A stretch of DNA of 64,000 bases from Bryobacteraceae bacterium (GCA_035632375.1 DASQGY010000037.1:5610-69609); one strand, 5' to 3'; counted from the stretch's first letter, positions 54,562-61,979 are shown. Numbers and translations: made by a program. Notes: a model not told the origin generated them from the letters alone.

Positions 54562-56235
54562 CTAGTGCGCGTTTGCGATTAGACCTTCCACTTCGGGGTC
54601 ACTGCCATAATAGTCTTTCATAATGGGAAAGTAGACGTACATGGTCGAGCGTCCTTCGATCGCTCGCTTAGCCCAGACCAACAACTGCCCGCGATCGTGC
54701 AAAGCGGTACAAAGCTCCATCGCGAATATTGGCTCGACATGTTGTTTGGCCCTGAGGCTCTCTAATCGCGCCAAGGTCTGTTCCGCCTCGGCGCGCCGGC
54801 CCTCCCGTGCTGCAGCCGTGCCGAAGAATGCAATGAAAGTGGGCACTTCGGGCATTCCCTTCAGGCTGTCTTTCAGGGTTTCCACCACGTGGTGGGCGGA
54901 AGATATGTCGCCCTTGTGGTAGTACGCCTCGGCTTGGAAGTAGAGGAGCAGAGGATGGTTTGGAAAGAGCTCGAGTGATTTCTGCAAGTGACGCAGAGCT
55001 TCATCAAACTGATGGGCCAGCAACAGTTCGTTGCCGATGTCCCAATGAATCGCCACGGATAGGGGGTCGAGATCCAGAGCTGCACGCATCTCTTTCATGG
55101 CTTCCGGCAAGCGATTCTGGGCCTCGAGCGAGTGTGCATACCAGTGATGCCCCCAGCCCGAGCCGGGATTCAGTTGCATGGCTCGTTGAAACTCGCGTTG
55201 TGCGCCCTCCCGGTCCCATTCATAGTCCATCTTCACGATGCCCCGTGAGATATGACCTTCACCCAGGTTGTCGTCCAGGGCGACGGCCTTCTCGGCGGCT
55301 TCCTTCGCTTTGGGCATGACTTCCTGCGGCGCGACGATGAAACTCTCGCCCAGATACGCGTAAGCGTCGGCCAGTCCGGCGTAAGCGAGAGCGAATTTCG
55401 GATCGCGATCGATGGCCTGTTTGTAGTGTTCGATGGCGCGATTGTAGGAATCGGGCGGCAAGTGCTGGTTGAAGAAGTAGCGGCCTTCCTGATAAGACCG
55501 GTAGGCCTCAAGATTCGTAGTCGGTTCGCGATGGGGAACCTGGCCGGCGCGCAACTGGTCGGCGATGGATTGCGAGATCTCCCGTTGCACCCTGAAGATG
55601 TCGCGAAGTTGGCGGTCGAAGGTGCGCGACCAAAGGTGGGTGCCGTCGGAGACGCGGTTGAGCTGGGCGGTGATGCGAAGCTGGTCGCCATCCTTGCGCA
55701 CGCTGCCTTCGAGGACTGAGTTGACGTTCAACTGCTGGCCGATCTGCCGGATGTCGTTGTTCTTGCCCTTAAAAGCGAAGGCAGAAGTGCGGGCCACCAC
55801 GCGCAGGTTGGGGACGCGGCTGAGCGCGTCGATGATTTCTTCGGTGAGGCCGTCGCTGAAGTAGTCCTGGTCTTTTTGCGGGCTCAAGTCGAGGAATGGA
55901 AGAACAACGACGGAGGAGACCGCTGGTGGCTTTGTCTGGAAGTTCCTCCAGAGAAGGAATCCGGCTGCGGCGAGGATCAGCAGGGCTGCAGCAATAAGGG
56001 CGGCGGACCGCCAAGGCGGCAGCGGAGCATCGGGGATGCTCTTGCGGCCCGAGCGCCAAGCGTCAAGCTCGGATTTGAAGGCGTAGACCGAGCCCTGACG
56101 GGCGTGCTGGTGCCGATGGATCGGTAAGCCCTCGTTCTTCTCCCAGAGCTGGACCGTGCGGGCCTCGCGGCCAAGGTAGGCGGCGATTTCCTTCCAGGAG
56201 TCGAGTCGACCGGCGCCTTCTGAGGAATCAGGCAT
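54562..56235 (-). CDS. HTH plus TM plus TolB_N-like plus TPR-repeat regulatory protein
   Basis: N-terminal DNA-binding-like segment RLDSWKEIAAYLGREARTVQLWEKNEGLPIHR, one TM helix, a TolB-N-like module (VVVLPFLDLSP...DYFSDGLTEEIIDALSRVPNLRVVARTSAF...VLEGSVRKDGDQLRITAQL), then TPR repeats. Confidence 0.7.
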   Translation of the reverse strand: MPDSSEGAGRLDSWKEIAAYLGREARTVQLWEKNEGLPIHRHQHARQGSVYAFKSELDAWRSGRKSIPDAPLPPWRSAALIAAALLILAAAGFLLWRNFQTKPPAVSSVVVLPFLDLSPQKDQDYFSDGLTEEIIDALSRVPNLRVVARTSAFAFKGKNNDIRQIGQQLNVNSVLEGSVRKDGDQLRITAQLNRVSDGTHLWSRTFDRQLRDIFRVQREISQSIADQLRAGQVPHREPTTNLEAYRSYQEGRYFFNQHLPPDSYNRAIEHYKQAIDRDPKFALAYAGLADAYAYLGESFIVAPQEVMPKAKEAAEKAVALDDNLGEGHISRGIVKMDYEWDREGAQREFQRAMQLNPGSGWGHHWYAHSLEAQNRLPEAMKEMRAALDLDPLSVAIHWDIGNELLLAHQFDEALRHLQKSLELFPNHPLLLYFQAEAYYHKGDISSAHHVVETLKDSLKGMPEVPTFIAFFGTAAAREGRRAEAEQTLARLESLRAKQHVEPIFAMELCTALHDRGQLLVWAKRAIEGRSTMYVYFPIMKDYYGSDPEVEGLIANAH

Positions 56236-56394
56236 TGGACTTCGGGGAGAACCGAGGGGGAGTATAGCACAAGGCGGCGAAAAAGAGCGAAATCTCTTGT
56301 ATTACGTGCGGTTTCGCTTGAGAGATGAGCTGGGGTGAAGGAAACTGGATCTCGGCGGTAGACTGGCTAAGGCGCCGCCGCTGGGAGGCATATC

Positions 56395-57381
56395 GTGAAG
56401 ATGGCAAACATCGGGTGTCGGGAAGAAAAACCGGGGACAGGTAGCTCTGTCCACGCGCCGGTGAGCTACCAGCGGTTCCCTCGGGATTTCGGCGGCTTGG
56501 GACAGAGTAACCTGTCCCCGGTTTTTCTGTTGCTCCTTTTTGCCGGACTGGTGGTGGGGCAGCATCAGCACGCCGCTGCGGCTGCTGAGAAGCCGGTTTC
56601 GCTGCTGCCTGGCCTGGGGACCTGGCGGCATCCCATTGCTACGAAGAATCCGGAGGCGCAGAAGTATTTCGATCAGGGGCTGATTCTGGTTTATGGATTC
56701 AACCGGCCGGAGGCGCTGCGGTCGTTTCGCAAGGCGGCGGAGTTGGATCCACAGGCGACGATGCCCTGGTGGGGCGTGGCCATGGCCTTGGGGCCGTACC
56801 TCAACATGGACATGGATCCGGATGTGCACTTGAAGGAATCGTGCGAGGCCGTGAACAGCGGGCTGCAGCGGGCGGGCATCGGCCCGGTGGAGCGCGACTG
56901 GCTGGAGGCCGCTAAGGCTCGGTGTCCGGATTTCGCCGAACCTGGCCGTTACGTGCGGGCCATGCGCGAACTGGCGGCGAAGTATCCGGACGATCCCGAC
57001 GCGCAGACGTTGTACGCCGAAGCGCTGATGCTTCCGGTGCGATGGAAGTGGTACGGGCCCGATGGGAAGCCCGCCGAGGGTGTCGCCGAGGCGGAGCGTG
57101 TGCTCGAATCGGTGCTGCATCGGCATCCGGATCATCCGGGGGCGAACCATTTTTACATCCACGTGGTGGAGTCGTCACCCACGCCAGAGCGGGCGGTTCC
57201 GAGCGCGCAACGATTGATGGGGATCGTGCCGGCCGCGGGTCACATCGTACATATGCCGGGCCATATCTGGCTGCTGCTGGGCGATTTCAATAACACCGTC
57301 GCGGTGAATGAGCGCGCGGTGGAAGTGGACCGGCAGTATTTCGAACAGACCGGGATGATGAGCAGTTACTACTCTTACTAC
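56395..57381 (+). pseudogene. 5' fragment of a TPR-like/helical-repeat secreted protein gene split by the IS1595 element
   Basis: The reading frame ...RAVEVDRQYFEQTGMMSSYYSYY is fused at 57382 to IS-derived codons (GKNILDYSLVSWHD*). It continues in phase at 59895 (LHNLQFILYARAMQG...) once the element and one copy of the 8-bp duplication are removed. The true start is uncertain because the first ~45 codons lie in the MITE-like repeat. Confidence 0.8.
56425..56527. repeat. 103-bp palindromic MITE-like element, copy A
   Basis: GAAAAACCGGGGACAGG...CTGTCCACGCGCCGG...GGGATT.CGGCGGCTTGGGACAG...CCTGTCCCCGGTTTTTC. The termini are inverted repeats of each other. A second 103-bp copy lies at 63056-63158 and shares these blocks. 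Confidence 0.8.
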
Positions 57382-57428
57382 GGCAAGAATATACTTGACT
57401 ACTCCCTGGTTTCGTGGCATGATTAGTC

Positions 57429-58385
57429 ATGGCCGCTGAACCCAAGACCCTTCAAGAAGCTATCGTATACTTCGACGATCCTCAGAACTGCCTCGACTAC
57501 ATGGTAGCGCGGCGCTGGCCGAAAGGCGTCACCTGTCCCACTTGCGGCAATACCAAGGTGAAGTTTCAACCCAAACATTACCGCTGGCAGTGCAGCACGA
57601 AGCATCCTAGGCGGCAGTTCACCGCGAAGGTCGGTACGATCTACGAAGACTCCCCTATTGGTCTGGACAAGTGGCTAACCGCAACCTGGATGATTACGAA
57701 TTGCAAAAACGGCAACAGTTCCTGGGAGCTTCACCGGACTCTGGGAGTTACCCAAAAGACCGCGTGGTTCATGGGGCATCGGATTCGGCTTGCGATGCAG
57801 GATATGGCGGGCGGCAAGCTGGGCGGCGAAGTCGAGATTGACGAAACCTTCATCGGCGGCAAGGCGCGGAACATGCACAAAGAGAAACGCGAGCGCGTCA
57901 TCACCGGCACTGGCGGAAAAGACAAGACCGTAGTCATGGGCATGATGGAACGCGGCGGAAACGTGCGGGCGATGGTCGTAGACACCCGCCGGAAGAAAGA
58001 ACTCCAGAGCCAAGTACGTGAGCACGTCGAAGCGGGCGCGGCGATCTTCACCGACGAACTGAAATCCTACGACGGGCTGGAGAACAGCTTTCAGCATCAG
58101 GTCATCAATCACGCCGTGGAGTACGTCAACGGCAACGTGCATACCAACGCCATGGAAAACTTCTGGAGTTTGCTCAAGCGCGGCCTGCACGGAACCTACG
58201 TGTCGGTCGAACCGTTCCACCTGTTCCGCTACATCGACGAACAGGCATTTCGGTTCAACAATCGCAAGGGCATGGACGACGCAGACCGCTTCGACGCGGT
58301 TGTGAAGCAAATTGTGGGGAAGCGGTTGACCTATGCGGAACTCACTGGGAAACTAGATCCGAGTGCGACGCAAGCGATCAACTGA
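57429..58385 (+). CDS. IS1595-family transposase (N-terminal zinc-ribbon plus ISXO2-like DDE domain)
   Basis: FDDPQNCLDYMVARRWPKGVTCPTCGNTKV...YRWQCSTKHPRRQFTAKVGTIYEDSPIGLDKWLTATWMI (Zn_Tnp_IS1595 pattern). Followed by EIDETFIGGK..., ...IFTDELKSY..., ...HQVINH...YVNGNVHTNAMENFWSLLKR (DDE_Tnp_IS1595 pattern). Confidence 0.92.
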   Translation: MAAEPKTLQEAIVYFDDPQNCLDYMVARRWPKGVTCPTCGNTKVKFQPKHYRWQCSTKHPRRQFTAKVGTIYEDSPIGLDKWLTATWMITNCKNGNSSWELHRTLGVTQKTAWFMGHRIRLAMQDMAGGKLGGEVEIDETFIGGKARNMHKEKRERVITGTGGKDKTVVMGMMERGGNVRAMVVDTRRKKELQSQVREHVEAGAAIFTDELKSYDGLENSFQHQVINHAVEYVNGNVHTNAMENFWSLLKRGLHGTYVSVEPFHLFRYIDEQAFRFNNRKGMDDADRFDAVVKQIVGKRLTYAELTGKLDPSATQAIN

Positions 58386-58442
58386 GAAGTCCAGAAGATT
58401 GAAGCGCGGCAGAAAGCCGCGTATAATTGAGCCATAGACAAC

Positions 58443-58486
58443 GAAGGCCGGACGCGAGTGCAAATCGTTCCGGCCTTCTGAATTTT
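58443..58486 (+). terminator. Rho-independent terminator after the transposase gene
   Basis: GAAGGCCGGA (58443-52), a 16-nt loop, then TCCGGCCTTC (58469-78), followed by TGAATTTT. Confidence 0.6.
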
Positions 58487-58617
58487 GCCGTTTGTTGAGT
58501 ACGGCGGGTTCAGGCACCCCCATCGTACTTCAGGTGGTTCTCCCTGTCAATAACGGCTGTAAGTGAAAGTGTGCCAACTACGTTAGCGCGAGACGGGAAA
58601 GGAGGACCAAATAAAAC

Positions 58618-58776
58618 ATGCGAGTCCCCTACTACTGGGTACATCGAAACGCGCCGTGCTTTGCTGTATGCTGTCCGCAACCACAAAGCACGGCCACAAA
58701 CCCGATGATAACTGCTGCTATCATCGGAGCAGTGGCAACTGTTGTAGCGGCCTGTATATCGAGTAGCAGTCGATAA
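58618..58776 (+). CDS. Possible 52-aa small membrane peptide inside the IS cargo
   Basis: Below the track's size cut-off. The ATG is preceded by GGAAAGGAGGA, though the spacer is rather long (12 nt). Sequence: MRVPYYWVHRNAPCFAVCCPQPQSTATNPMITAAIIGAVATVVAACISSSSR, i.e. Cys-rich then one hydrophobic helix. Speculative. Confidence 0.25.
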   Translation: MRVPYYWVHRNAPCFAVCCPQPQSTATNPMITAAIIGAVATVVAACISSSSR

Positions 58777-58781
58777 CCGGC

Positions 58782-58955
58782 TTACCGCATTCGCGCGGTC
58801 TTAGACTTCGGTTTGGGACCGCGCTTGTGCGGATTCTTTGCGGCCTGCCTCTTGTAGGCGTCCATCCGTCTCTTCAGTTCATCATGTGAGACGGTCAGGA
58901 TGTGGTCCATGGTGCGGTTGAACGCTTCGAACTCCGGGTTCGGTTCGGTCTTCAT
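58782..58955 (-). CDS. Possible 57-aa basic helical protein directly downstream of the 303-aa cargo gene
   Basis: Below the track's size cut-off. Sequence: MKTEPNPEFEAFNRTMDHILTVSHDELKRRMDAYKRQAAKNPHKRGPKPKSKTARMR. It starts 7 nt after the stop of the 303-aa ORF on the same strand. Confidence 0.35.
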   Translation of the reverse strand: MKTEPNPEFEAFNRTMDHILTVSHDELKRRMDAYKRQAAKNPHKRGPKPKSKTARMR

Positions 58956-58961
58956 CTGTTT

Positions 58962-59873
58962 TTAGCTTACTTCCTTTAGGCCGCACCTCGCTAGGCATTT
59001 CATGAAGTCCCCGACATTCCTAAACACTAGAGCGGCCTCCTCTGGTGTGCAAGGCCCCCGCTGGTGAGAGATGTAGTTCCTCCAGGCGTTCTTGAAATGA
59101 AAAAAGTGTAAAGACGCATCTCCATATGTTTGCAACTTGTCCGTCTTGGCTTGGCCGCGTGGTTGTTGCTTCTCTATGGCCTTAATCGCCGCGTCGATTG
59201 CGTCGATGATAGTACTCCAGTCTTGGTACTCGAACGGAATCGAAAATGGCACGTTCAGGTCACGAGCTAAGGTACGCAGGCCGATTTCAAGCACCCTCAT
59301 ACAATGGAACACACAAGCGGTAGCTCTGTCGGTTACGTAACAGAGGCTTGCGTCGTATAAATCATCCATTGCGGAACTGAAGTTCGACGCCACATCATGC
59401 CCCCAAAAAGGTTCGGTCCTGAATTCTTCTCGCGTCTTCAGATACTCTCTACGGGCAGGATCAAACTGCACGAACGTATGCTCTTTCAGTTCCTCTCGAA
59501 ACAACGCCGCAAGCCTTTTGACGGAGAGCTTCAATTGTTCGTGTGTATGCTCAGTTCCGTATTCAGAGATAAGGCAGTCTATAGTAACGGCAGTCTTCTC
59601 AAGACCCATGGCCTTGGCATCATTGCCAATCTCAGCCAATTTGTTCAGGAAGTTCTGCCGTTGTTCATGTCCCATCTCACGATCAGGCATCACATCCGCA
59701 ACGGGGTTGCTATAAAAACTCTGAATATCTATGCCGATCTGCACGAACCTGAAAACGTCCCTAGGTATCACGTCGGAGAGACTCCAGATTCGTAACGGTT
59801 TGCCGCGCCAGTCCCATTGAACACACGTAGGCCCACAGGATTTATTTTGGCAGAGGTGGAGGGGAGTAGTCAA
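58962..59873 (-). CDS. Passenger protein with C-terminal HEPN-like helical domain (Rx4H motif)
   Basis: All-helical. The C-terminal ~130 aa read ...ATACVFHCMRVLEIGLRTLARDL...IIDAIDAAIKAIEK...HFFHFKNAWRNYISHQRG...EAALVFRNVGDFMKCL. This gives the R-N-Y-I-S-H = Rx4H signature in the helix-pair context typical of HEPN/DUF4145/Abi_C-type domains. The start is uncertain: the track's TTG start (59873) lies inside the right IR, and ATG candidates lie at complement 59688-59690 and 59673-59675. A/T-richer than the host DNA. Confidence 0.55.
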   Translation of the reverse strand: MTTPLHLCQNKSCGPTCVQWDWRGKPLRIWSLSDVIPRDVFRFVQIGIDIQSFYSNPVADVMPDREMGHEQRQNFLNKLAEIGNDAKAMGLEKTAVTIDCLISEYGTEHTHEQLKLSVKRLAALFREELKEHTFVQFDPARREYLKTREEFRTEPFWGHDVASNFSSAMDDLYDASLCYVTDRATACVFHCMRVLEIGLRTLARDLNVPFSIPFEYQDWSTIIDAIDAAIKAIEKQQPRGQAKTDKLQTYGDASLHFFHFKNAWRNYISHQRGPCTPEEAALVFRNVGDFMKCLARCGLKEVS

Positions 59874-59886
59874 CTATATTATTACC

Positions 59887-60626
59887 CTTACTACCTGCAC
59901 AACCTGCAGTTCATTTTGTATGCCCGGGCGATGCAAGGCAGGCTGGTGGAAACGAAGAAGGCCGCGCAGCAGATGACCGCGGCGGCGAAAGAGATGGCGG
60001 CCACAATGCCGGAGATGGCCGAAGTATTCCAGCTTTTCGTGACTATGTCGGAATTGCGGCTGTATCGCTGGGATGAGCTGCTGGCGGTGGCGCGGCCCAA
60101 GACCGAGAATCCGCTCACGATGGCGATGTGGCATTACGCGCGAGCGTTGGCACTTGCCGCCAAGGGCCGGGCCGGCGAGGCGCAGACGCAGCAGGCGGAG
60201 TTCGAGAAACTGGCGAAGACGTTGGATCGTAACATGCCCTGGGATACAAACAAGCTGGGCGACGTAATGGATATGGCATCGGCGGCGCTGAGCGCGCGAT
60301 TGGAGACTTCTCCCGCGGCTGCGATCGCCAAGTGGAGGCATGCAGTGGCGCATCAGGATGCGTTGATGTACGACGAACCGCCGGCCTGGTACTACCCGCT
60401 GCGGGAGTCGCTGGGGGCGGCGATGCTCTTGTCGGGGGATGCGTCTGGGGCGGAAACGGTATTCCGGGAAGGCTTGCGGCGGAGTCCGAACAATGGCCGG
60501 ATGCTGTTTGGTCTGCTGGAGAGTTTGAAGGCGCAGGGGAAGGCGGAGGCAGTGTCGTGGGTGCAGCGCGAGTTTGAGACCGCGTGGAAGGGCGCGGATG
60601 TTGAGTTGCGGCTAAAGGATCTTTGA
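59887..60626 (+). pseudogene. 3' fragment of the IS-interrupted TPR-like protein gene
   Basis: ...YYLHNLQFILYARAMQGRLVETKKAAQQM...AMWHYARALALAAKGRAGEAQ...FREGLRRSPNNGRMLFGLLESLKAQGK (TPR-like helices). In phase with the 5' fragment after removal of the IS. Confidence 0.8.
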
Positions 60627-60632
60627 TCGGTC

Positions 60633-61979
60633 TTGTTACAATCGTCGGCTACGGCTGATTGGCGAGAGTATCACGAAGCGACGAAACATACCTCGGCGTC
60701 GATAAGACGTAGCAAACATTTTTTGGATTGGAAGAACATGCCCGATCCATTCCGGAACTACGAGGGTGTTCCGGTTGTCGATCTACCAGCCGACCCGCCG
60801 GAGCCTGGGACGGGCGGATCGCAGGATTGGATCGAGTTCCTTTCGCGGTTGCTGTTCTACTCGGCGTCGATCAGCGCGGCCAAGCAGGCTCCATCGGGGA
60901 TGAGTTACGCGTTGCGGGTGAACCCGTCGTCGGGAAATCTGCATCCCACCGAGTTTCATTTGGCATGCCCCAATGGGCTGTATCACTACCGGGCCGCTTC
61001 CCACATGCTGGAGCAGCGGGCTCGCGGCGATTATGGGCCGCTGCGATTTCTGCTGACGAGCATCGTGTGGCGCGAGGCTTGGAAATACCAGAGCCGGGCG
61101 TATCGGTATTGTCTGCTCGATGCCGGTCACGCATGGCAGTCGCTGGAGCTTGCGGCTCGGGCGTTGGGATGTGAGGTTCAGGCGACCGGGGATTTGGACC
61201 ACGGTTCATTGCCTGAGTTTGGGTTGCCGGAGGATGAATGGCCGATGCTGCTGGTGGATGTGCGGGGCGGGCCGGATTTTCCGCGGGGAGGCGCGCGCGA
61301 GTGGTTGGGTGGTGCGCCGAATCGGCTTTCCGAGGAGGTGATTCGATATCCGTTGATTGAGGCGCTGCGGACTGCTCCCTCACGGTCACGGCTCAGTTTA
61401 GAGTCGTCCGATATTGACGGGGCACGTGCCGTTGCTCTTGTCCGCGTTGCGCGGAGGCGGCGGTCGGCGCTTGATTTTCGCGGTGGCGATGAAACCATCG
61501 AGCTGGATCAACTGATGACGCTGCTCAACGTTGCGTCGCCGGGGCAGCATGTCCAGCTCTATTTGTATGTGCATCGGGTCCGTGGGCTCCATCCGGGCGT
61601 GTATCTGTATTGGCCCGATGACGCGCGCCTGGAACTGCTGAAGACCGGCGATCAGCGGGTGATGGCCGCCGCGCTTTGCCTTGGCCAGGATCTGGCCGGA
61701 AACTCCTGTGTCACCTTCTCGATGATTGGGGATCTCGATCAAGACTACCGCTGTGTTCATTTCGAGGCCGGCGGCATCGGACAGCGTCTCTATCTAGGCG
61801 CGGAGACGCTGGGCTTCCAATCGACGGGCATCGGCGCTTTCTACGACGACGCAGTGCATCAGTACTTGGAGATCTCGCCGGACTCCACCCGGCAAGTGGT
61901 GTATCACTTCGCGTGTGGGTACGCGGTGGACGACGAGAGATTGGTAGCGCGGGATCGAGATCTACTGAATCTGGATTGA
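60633..61979 (+). CDS. Nitroreductase-superfamily, SagB/ThcOx-type dehydrogenase (two-domain)
   Basis: N-terminal YHEATKH motif typical of SagB-type proteins, and two nitroreductase-like halves (...YRYCLLDAGHAWQSLELAARALG... and ...HFEAGGIGQRLYLGAETLGFQSTGIGAFYDD). TTG start. Assignment is by motif memory only. Confidence 0.6.
   Translation: MLQSSATADWREYHEATKHTSASIRRSKHFLDWKNMPDPFRNYEGVPVVDLPADPPEPGTGGSQDWIEFLSRLLFYSASISAAKQAPSGMSYALRVNPSSGNLHPTEFHLACPNGLYHYRAASHMLEQRARGDYGPLRFLLTSIVWREAWKYQSRAYRYCLLDAGHAWQSLELAARALGCEVQATGDLDHGSLPEFGLPEDEWPMLLVDVRGGPDFPRGGAREWLGGAPNRLSEEVIRYPLIEALRTAPSRSRLSLESSDIDGARAVALVRVARRRRSALDFRGGDETIELDQLMTLLNVASPGQHVQLYLYVHRVRGLHPGVYLYWPDDARLELLKTGDQRVMAAALCLGQDLAGNSCVTFSMIGDLDQDYRCVHFEAGGIGQRLYLGAETLGFQSTGIGAFYDDAVHQYLEISPDSTRQVVYHFACGYAVDDERLVARDRDLLNLD

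Follow-up and report, generated by a model that had tools for sequence, protein, structure and literature searches.

The element and the gene that it splits

The 64,000-nt stretch of DNA analyzed here (the window; DASQGY010000037.1, positions 5610 to 69609) comes from the metagenome-assembled genome (MAG) of a soil Bryobacteraceae-like bacterium of the Acidobacteriota (GCA_035632375.1). Judging by the names that homologues bear, the organism belongs to the Bryobacteraceae/Bryobacterales and comes from soil. Between positions 56395 and 60626, the window holds what is very probably a transporter insertion sequence (tIS) of the IS1595 family, complete and 2,505 bp long, inserted in the coding region for a secreted TPR-like protein. 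The locus reads, from left to right, as the 5′ fragment of the target gene, a transposase gene, a spacer, two oppositely oriented cargo genes, and the 3′ fragment of the target gene.

The element is bounded by two 25-nt inverted repeats (IRs), the left one (IRL) at 57382 to 57406 on the plus strand and the right one (IRR) at 59862 to 59886 on the minus strand, which are 2,505 bp apart from end to end and start with GGCAAGAAT and GGTAATAAT. By sequence reading and with a repeat finder, the two were identical at 22 of 25 positions; they were the sole two matches at up to 3 mismatches across the window, and none appeared in 100 shuffles. Directly abutting them is an exact 8-bp target site duplication (TSD), CTTACTAC, whose left copy occupies 57374 to 57381 and whose right copy occupies 59887 to 59894. 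Each IR carries a TTGACT box facing inward and accompanied by an extended −10-like box. At the left end, the −35-like box lies at 57395 to 57400 and the extended −10 box ends at 57423, just before the ATG of the transposase gene; at the right end, the −35-like box reads from 59873 to 59868 and the −10-like box ends at 59844, upstream of the cargo operon.

Inside IRL lies a plus-strand gene (57429 to 58385) for a 318-aa IS1595-family DDE transposase with an N-terminal zinc ribbon. The protein matches PF12762 over profile positions 1 to 153 of 153 (E value, 4.7e-43), NF033547 with 191.8 bits against a cut-off of 75 (1.4e-56), and the zinc ribbon PF12760 above its cut-off (3e-07). In an alignment of 14 transposases reaching down to 39% identity, D138, D209, E243, and K250 were invariant, as were C36, C39, and C55 of the ribbon, and therefore the enzyme looks intact. 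A preliminary description of the locus had reported the repeats, the duplication, an intact transposase open reading frame (ORF), and membership in the IS1595 family. Its coordinates and identities were reproduced, the frame proved unbroken from 57429 to 58385 with a full-length domain match and catalytic residues present, and the family assignment was substantiated by PF12762, NF033547, the zinc ribbon, the D-D-E-K residues, the IRs, and the 8-bp duplication. Behind the gene, a hairpin with a folding energy of −24 kcal/mol and a T-rich tail (58443 to 58478, plus strand) is the likely transposase terminator.

The same description had pointed to an unusual size, with about 1.5 kb of DNA beyond the transposase. 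This was confirmed, and we attribute the size beyond that of a minimal IS1595 member to the passenger-carrying nature of the element; however, the extra DNA is not featureless, since it holds two conserved minus-strand genes that form an operon reading inward from IRR (58782 to 59771). The upstream gene, F3 (58962 to 59771, GTG start at 59771), encodes a HEPN-like protein of 269 aa with the Rx4H motif WRNYISH, and its ORF is open further, up to a TTG at 59873 within IRR. Metagenomes contained 46 F3 homologues, one of them labeled HEPN by its source. Across 44 homologues, R231 and H236 of the Rx4H motif, H156, and E162 were invariant, and 13 of the 44 gave weak matches to the HEPN profile PF05168 (best, 9e-4). 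The AlphaFold (AF2) model of F3 is all-helical, with a predicted local distance difference test score (pLDDT) of 92 and a predicted template modeling score (pTM) of 0.80, and its distant neighbors in the Atlas include HEPN and DUF4145 clusters, at template modeling (TM) scores of 0.35 to 0.40 by query.

The second gene of the operon, F1 (58782 to 58955, minus strand), encodes a 57-aa backbone protein of the insertion sequence (IS) clade described below, with homologues beside IS1595 transposases. It lies directly 3′ of the large gene, the stop and start often overlapping, and it is modeled as a helical hairpin (residues 7 to 21 and 24 to 40) with a basic tail. The Atlas gave just unnamed clusters for F1, and a fold search would mean little for so small a protein. 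Between the transposase gene and F1, a spacer of about 400 bp (58386 to 58781) contains small unsupported ORFs only and is without counterpart in most clade members; it showed no similarity to any fetched locus, including a 193-aa gene at the same place in the sister element L008. One of its ORFs (58618 to 58776, plus strand) would encode a hydrophobic 52-aa protein and has an AGGAGG-like site about 12 nt upstream; no homologue of it was found in any fetched locus. The GC content of the cargo is 0.48 to 0.52, versus 0.62 for the host.

The target gene is present as a 5′ fragment (56395 to 57381 as the maximal ORF, plus strand), which gave weak TPR_19 and TPR_14 matches, and a 3′ fragment of 243 aa plus stop (59895 to 60626, plus strand), both identified by orthologue alignments. 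Upstream, the frame closes with TCT TAC TAC at 57381; downstream, it picks up again with CTG CAC at 59895, so that excision of the element together with one repeat copy keeps the frame (TAC/CTG). The rebuilt protein (SYYSYY/LHNLQF at the joint) has 572 aa as a maximal ORF and aligned in one high-scoring segment pair with each uninterrupted ORF of the three closest same-genus orthologues, L015 (72.5% over 539 aa), L016, and L017. At the joint, SYY/LHNLQF aligned without a gap to SYY/VHNLHF and MYY/MHNLQF, which share a conserved YY-xHN motif, and the rebuilt DNA was likewise collinear with the DNA of the relatives. These data agree with what had been proposed at the outset, namely, that the element precisely splits a TPR-like gene and that its removal restores a protein of about 570 aa in frame: the preinsertion sequence could be rebuilt exactly, the cut lies inside the YY-xHN motif, and uninterrupted counterparts exist as single intact ORFs within the genus. 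Downstream synteny with L015 was considered as further support for orthology and rejected; the next gene differs in L015, where the adjacency to a SagB-like gene is not kept, so that orthology is carried by the 72.5% full-length alignment only.

The uninterrupted orthologues are 533 to 550 aa long, and their alignment begins only at about residue 36 to 45 of the rebuilt protein. Judging from these alignments, a start near 56530 is the probable true one for the target gene; it would give about 527 aa and lie just 3′ of a palindromic element at 56425 to 56527. This 103-bp palindrome is MITE-like (miniature inverted-repeat transposable element) and sits inside the N-terminal extension of the longest ORF, upstream of position ~56530. 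An Rfam search over 56200 to 60800 returned just subthreshold microRNA and CsrC noise, on the palindromic element. At least two paralogues of the target gene (35 to 38% identity) are found in this genome, so that loss of the gene may be tolerated; we infer that, of no fewer than three paralogous genes, the insertion knocks out one, a loss that the host would withstand. A SagB/nitroreductase-like gene (60633 to 61979) begins only 7 bp beyond the stop codon of the split gene, and the insertion may therefore be polar on it.

The clade and its cargo slot

When the transposase was used as the query against a set with a single genome for each species, 62 loci were returned, mostly from Acidobacteriota. 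Elements were delimited by requiring IR similarity together with an exact 8-bp duplication, which gave 21 elements of 1,911 to 5,144 bp, none of minimal size. Two more, both intact, were found in the window's own genome, one of 4,856 bp on contig C42 (L119:2782-7637; TSD, CAAGAAAG) and one of 2,789 bp on C318 (L120:4193-6981; TSD, CTAATTAG), so that 23 elements with perfect 8-bp TSDs were available, three of them from this genome. A degraded clade transposase was also noticed on C290 of the same genome. The common plan begins with IRL and the transposase gene; on the opposite strand follow F1 and then one to a few larger genes, and IRR closes the element. The GGYAATAATATACTTGAC core of the IRs is kept across the clade, the TTGAC core being the best-conserved IR part. 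The IR starts of L027, L030, and L034 equal ggnnatTAT, the signature of the ISNwi1(+) subgroup of IS1595 (ISfinder), and those of the window element are close to it. The D-D-E-K residues, 8-bp repeats, and passenger genes would likewise suit this subgroup, to which the element may belong.

The 21 duplications follow the pattern C-W-W-A-T-T-W-G, with a GC content of 0.30 versus 0.56 in their flanks. The window's CTTACTAC fits 6 of the 8 positions and forms an AT-rich island of Tyr and Ser codons in a gene of 62% GC, which accounts for the insertion having fallen there. F1 was present in 14 of the 21 delimited elements, and when 401 genomes of the phylum were searched with an F1 profile, 18 of the 27 matches abutted an IS1595 transposase. 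Thus, F1 is a companion of the IS clade and not random cargo.

The metagenomic contig L008 carries a sister element with almost the same IRs and a perfect 8-bp TSD, AAAATATT. Compared with the window element, its transposase is 69% identical, its cargo homologue 42%, and its F1 81% over a 37-residue aligned core (30/37). A nested IS3-family element with 38-nt IRs and rve-domain ORFs (L008:1132-2729) clips the C terminus of the L008 HEPN-like gene just after the Rx4H motif. Another candidate, L007 (Logan contig SRR12354223_1104), was not counted, because the neighbor of its HEPN-like cargo homologue is a zinc-ribbon-HNH protein that shares only the first ~54 residues with the transposase, and no IRs were found. 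That convergent gene (L007:3406-4389) encodes 327 aa with an IS1595-type zinc ribbon (44% over 54 aa) and an HNH domain, without a DDE domain, and its product could be a domesticated or alternative partner.

The slot between F1 and IRR is occupied by unrelated genes in different elements, and in many of them these are genes with a recognized place in antiphage defense. The occupants include a full-length AbiU (E value, 2e-176), GmrSD-type proteins (HEC-06/Orf5, 2e-93; GmrSD_N with HNH; NsnA/PD-T4-2_A, 5e-63), and a Schlafen/AlbA_2-HATPase_c_4 protein, the last in the L067 element. DUF3800 proteins were found in six elements and the HEPN-like family in five, and a few further slot proteins, including singletons of 221 to 278 aa, were without a recognized family. 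In the window's own genome, the C42 slot holds a Beta_protein/PD-Lambda-2_C homologue (8e-44) and a SocA/Panacea-domain gene, and the C318 slot holds a candidate PDC-M63A/DUF6932 protein (2e-28) and a 305-aa protein of no named family. The L067 element, 5,144 bp in length, has its own transposase broken up by a different IS1595 transposase gene, which is present twice in tandem (334 aa per copy).

Cargo types are scattered on the transposase tree, the HEPN-like label alone needing at least three changes. An exchange can be followed at a single chromosomal site in two Acidobacteriaceae MAGs, L063 (HEPN-like) and L065 (DUF3800), whose transposases are sisters with 100/100 support. The two loci share 83% DNA identity from 177 bp of the left flank through the transposase and F1 genes, diverge into unrelated sequence at the start of F1, and become similar again over the terminal ~57 bp and in the right flank; this pattern shows in-place cassette replacement with fixed boundaries. 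Elsewhere on the tree, the transposases of L035 (a Tatlockia/Legionellaceae MAG with AbiU) and L037 (a Pyrinomonadaceae MAG with DUF3800) are short-branched in one weakly resolved group (94/99) although the two MAGs are labeled as different phyla; either the element has crossed between phyla or one of the MAGs was binned wrongly.

Junctions, mobility, and competing explanations

Junctions were assessed with Logan assembler contigs of the probable source run, which are independent of the MAG assembly. A 1,593-bp contig covers 56900 to 58351 at a depth of 9.3, and a 4,396-bp contig covers 58350 to 60400 at a depth of 8.3, both with 0 mismatches. Since the contigs span both junctions, a second assembler bridges them, and the similar depths indicate that the element is single copy. 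A second soil sample contained pieces of the target gene that are about 95% similar and end short of the insertion site, along with 226 nt from the transposase 3′ end in identical form. The search for further copies, which the preliminary description had suggested, gave a divided answer: the exact element occurs once in the MAG, but two further elements of its clade reside in the genome.

Based on these features, the transposase would bind both IRs and move all 2,505 bp as one unit, cutting AT-rich DNA with an 8-bp stagger, and by analogy with MTnSag1, a circular intermediate may be used. The −35-like boxes in both IRs would drive the transposase gene and the cargo operon inward, and their place inside the IRs could put them under the control of transposase binding. 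The HEPN-like cargo would be an RNase-type defense or toxin gene. We infer from the sequence that the unit is mobile as a whole, and given the perfect TSD, the intact catalytic residues, and the good IRs, it is plausible that the insertion is recent and possibly still active. For the clade, the patterns of the slot may mean, as a proposal that we consider possible but short of probable, that these elements are a dedicated shuttle for single-gene defense systems. Its fixed parts would be IRL, the transposase, F1, and the ~57-bp IRR end with its inward promoter, around a cassette slot exchanged in place; F3, the DUF3800 proteins, and the 221- to 278-aa singletons would be new antiphage genes, and F1 a new IS accessory factor with a part in regulation, in the choice of target, or in the exchange of cassettes.

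Several observations weigh against these interpretations. The promoter calls at the IRs are consensus matches only. There is one exact copy in an 87%-complete MAG, and scans of JGI (Joint Genome Institute) metagenome contigs for element ends returned 0 matches with the exact IRR and 0 with a degenerate IRL. Empty-site alleles are neither shown nor excluded by the assembler contigs: none was seen among the Logan contigs, which cannot show absence. F3 itself has no Pfam or NCBIfam match, so that its HEPN assignment is weak. Neither cargo protein matched PADLOC even at E values up to 1, unlike the cargo of relatives, which does match PADLOC models. Against the PDB, the F3 model gave a best Foldseek E value of 0.68, and a profile search gave nothing relevant; since neither fold nor profile led to a significant match with a solved structure, we call F3 HEPN-like, not HEPN. 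The defense role of the F3 and DUF3800 families is suggested through guilt by association. Furthermore, F1 was missing from 7 of the 21 delimited elements by ORF clustering, and 9 of its 27 profile matches had no transposase within 1.5 kb.

Alternative accounts of the insertion differ widely in their standing. That the junctions are an assembly chimera, or that the two fragments are independent genes, is barely credible. Such an artifact could arise in a fragmented MAG of 358 contigs with 4.6% contamination, and both possibilities had been raised in the preliminary description as fatal to its claim; neither refuted it, as the two mismatch-free Logan contigs cross both junctions at comparable depths and the fragments are collinear with single 533- to 550-aa ORFs in relatives of the same genus. 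Nearly as improbable, and already contradicted by the data, is a minimal IS1595 of about 1.1 kb lying beside unrelated DNA, with the distal IRR and the direct repeat arising by coincidence or from a composite of two elements. Minimal IS1595 members in ISfinder are about 1 kb long, and the cargo region is lower in GC (0.48 to 0.52) than the transposase region (0.54 to 0.59), as this account would have it. However, no second IR-like site (up to 3 mismatches) follows the transposase within the window, the exact TSD brackets all 2,505 bp, whole units are likewise bracketed in 22 other elements, and excision of the whole unit precisely rebuilds the host gene. An old, fixed insertion that is no longer mobile and looks intact owing to selection on its cargo deserves more weight, although we regard it as rather unlikely. 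It would fit the single copy in the MAG, the failure to find other insertion sites in the metagenome contigs scanned, the 3 of 25 positions at which the IRs differ, and the persistence of the L063/L065 pair at one site through species divergence, with 83% identity in flanks and backbone. It is opposed by the perfect 8-bp duplication, by the intact frame and catalytic residues of the transposase, by the uninterrupted gene in the three closest same-genus orthologues (L015 to L017), and by the identical transposase 3′ piece in the second soil sample.

The cargo admits a different reading as well, in which F3 and F1 form a selfish addiction or toxin-antitoxin-like module that stabilizes the element or biases its inheritance and does not serve antiphage defense. 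HEPN proteins are frequently toxins, the C42 element of the same genome carries a SocA/Panacea antitoxin-domain gene, F1 is small and follows right after the large gene with stop and start often overlapping, and no PADLOC model matches F3. Nonetheless, F1 remains part of the backbone when the large gene is exchanged among unrelated families, AbiU, GmrSD, and DUF3800 included, which is not the behavior of a dedicated antitoxin, and the slot is in several cases filled by a restriction or abortive-infection gene that works alone. We regard an addiction module as rather unlikely.

Comparison with known elements

According to Siguier, Gagnevin & Chandler (2009), as cited in PMC3129680, transporter ISs that carry passenger genes were defined on the IS1595 family, and the TnCentral preprint calls them "restricted to the IS1595 and IS66 families" (bioRxiv 10.1101/2021.05.26.445724). 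Their passenger genes, as listed in reviews, include regulators, methyltransferases, and resistance genes (PMC11891212). Passenger-carrying IS1595 elements are thus already described, and the window element adds a member, not a new principle: a single DDE transposase, terminal IRs, an 8-bp duplication, and passenger genes inside the IRs are common to all, whereas a HEPN-like gene with a clade-conserved small protein is the cargo here. Taken singly, the event is ordinary, an IS having disrupted a gene, but it is unusually clean in that the exact preinsertion sequence is recoverable. The clade pattern, by comparison, with its defense-rich swappable slot, conserved F1, and AT-rich target rule, is apparently absent from the literature; our literature search found no paper on IS1595 elements or a clade of them with defense cargo. 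Owing to their sharp ends, tiny swappable slot, and several recognized defense genes, these elements constitute a natural catalogue from which new one-gene defense or toxin systems of poorly studied soil phyla might be drawn, and it is the clade that gives the finding its wider value. They also illustrate the spread of defense-type genes by the smallest transposons, and the conserved 57-aa F1 is a candidate IS accessory factor.

The closest characterized relatives are tISCpe8 of Clostridium perfringens (lnuP) and MTnSag1/tISSag10 of Streptococcus agalactiae [lnu(C)], which are 1.7 to 2.0 kb long, carry one passenger gene, and show 25-bp IRs, 8-bp repeats, and a preference for AT-rich targets (PMC5704250). 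These Firmicutes elements confer lincosamide resistance, were shown to excise as circles, and are mobilized by Tn916 (PMC5704250). The window element shares with them the IS1595-family transposase, the 25-bp IRs, the 8-bp repeats, and the AT-rich targets; it differs in being acidobacterial, in lacking a resistance gene, in having an extra conserved small gene, and in being known from sequence alone. At the level of the clade, the nearest parallel is with Tn7-like transposons, which carry defense cargo (Benler et al. 2021, PMC8649781). In both, the backbone of a transposon is joined to a cargo region that varies and is enriched in defense genes. Tn7-like elements, however, rely on multiprotein machinery, are site specific, and span tens of kilobases, whereas the window element is an IS that has a single transposase, accommodates one to a few genes in its slot, and targets AT-rich DNA loosely.

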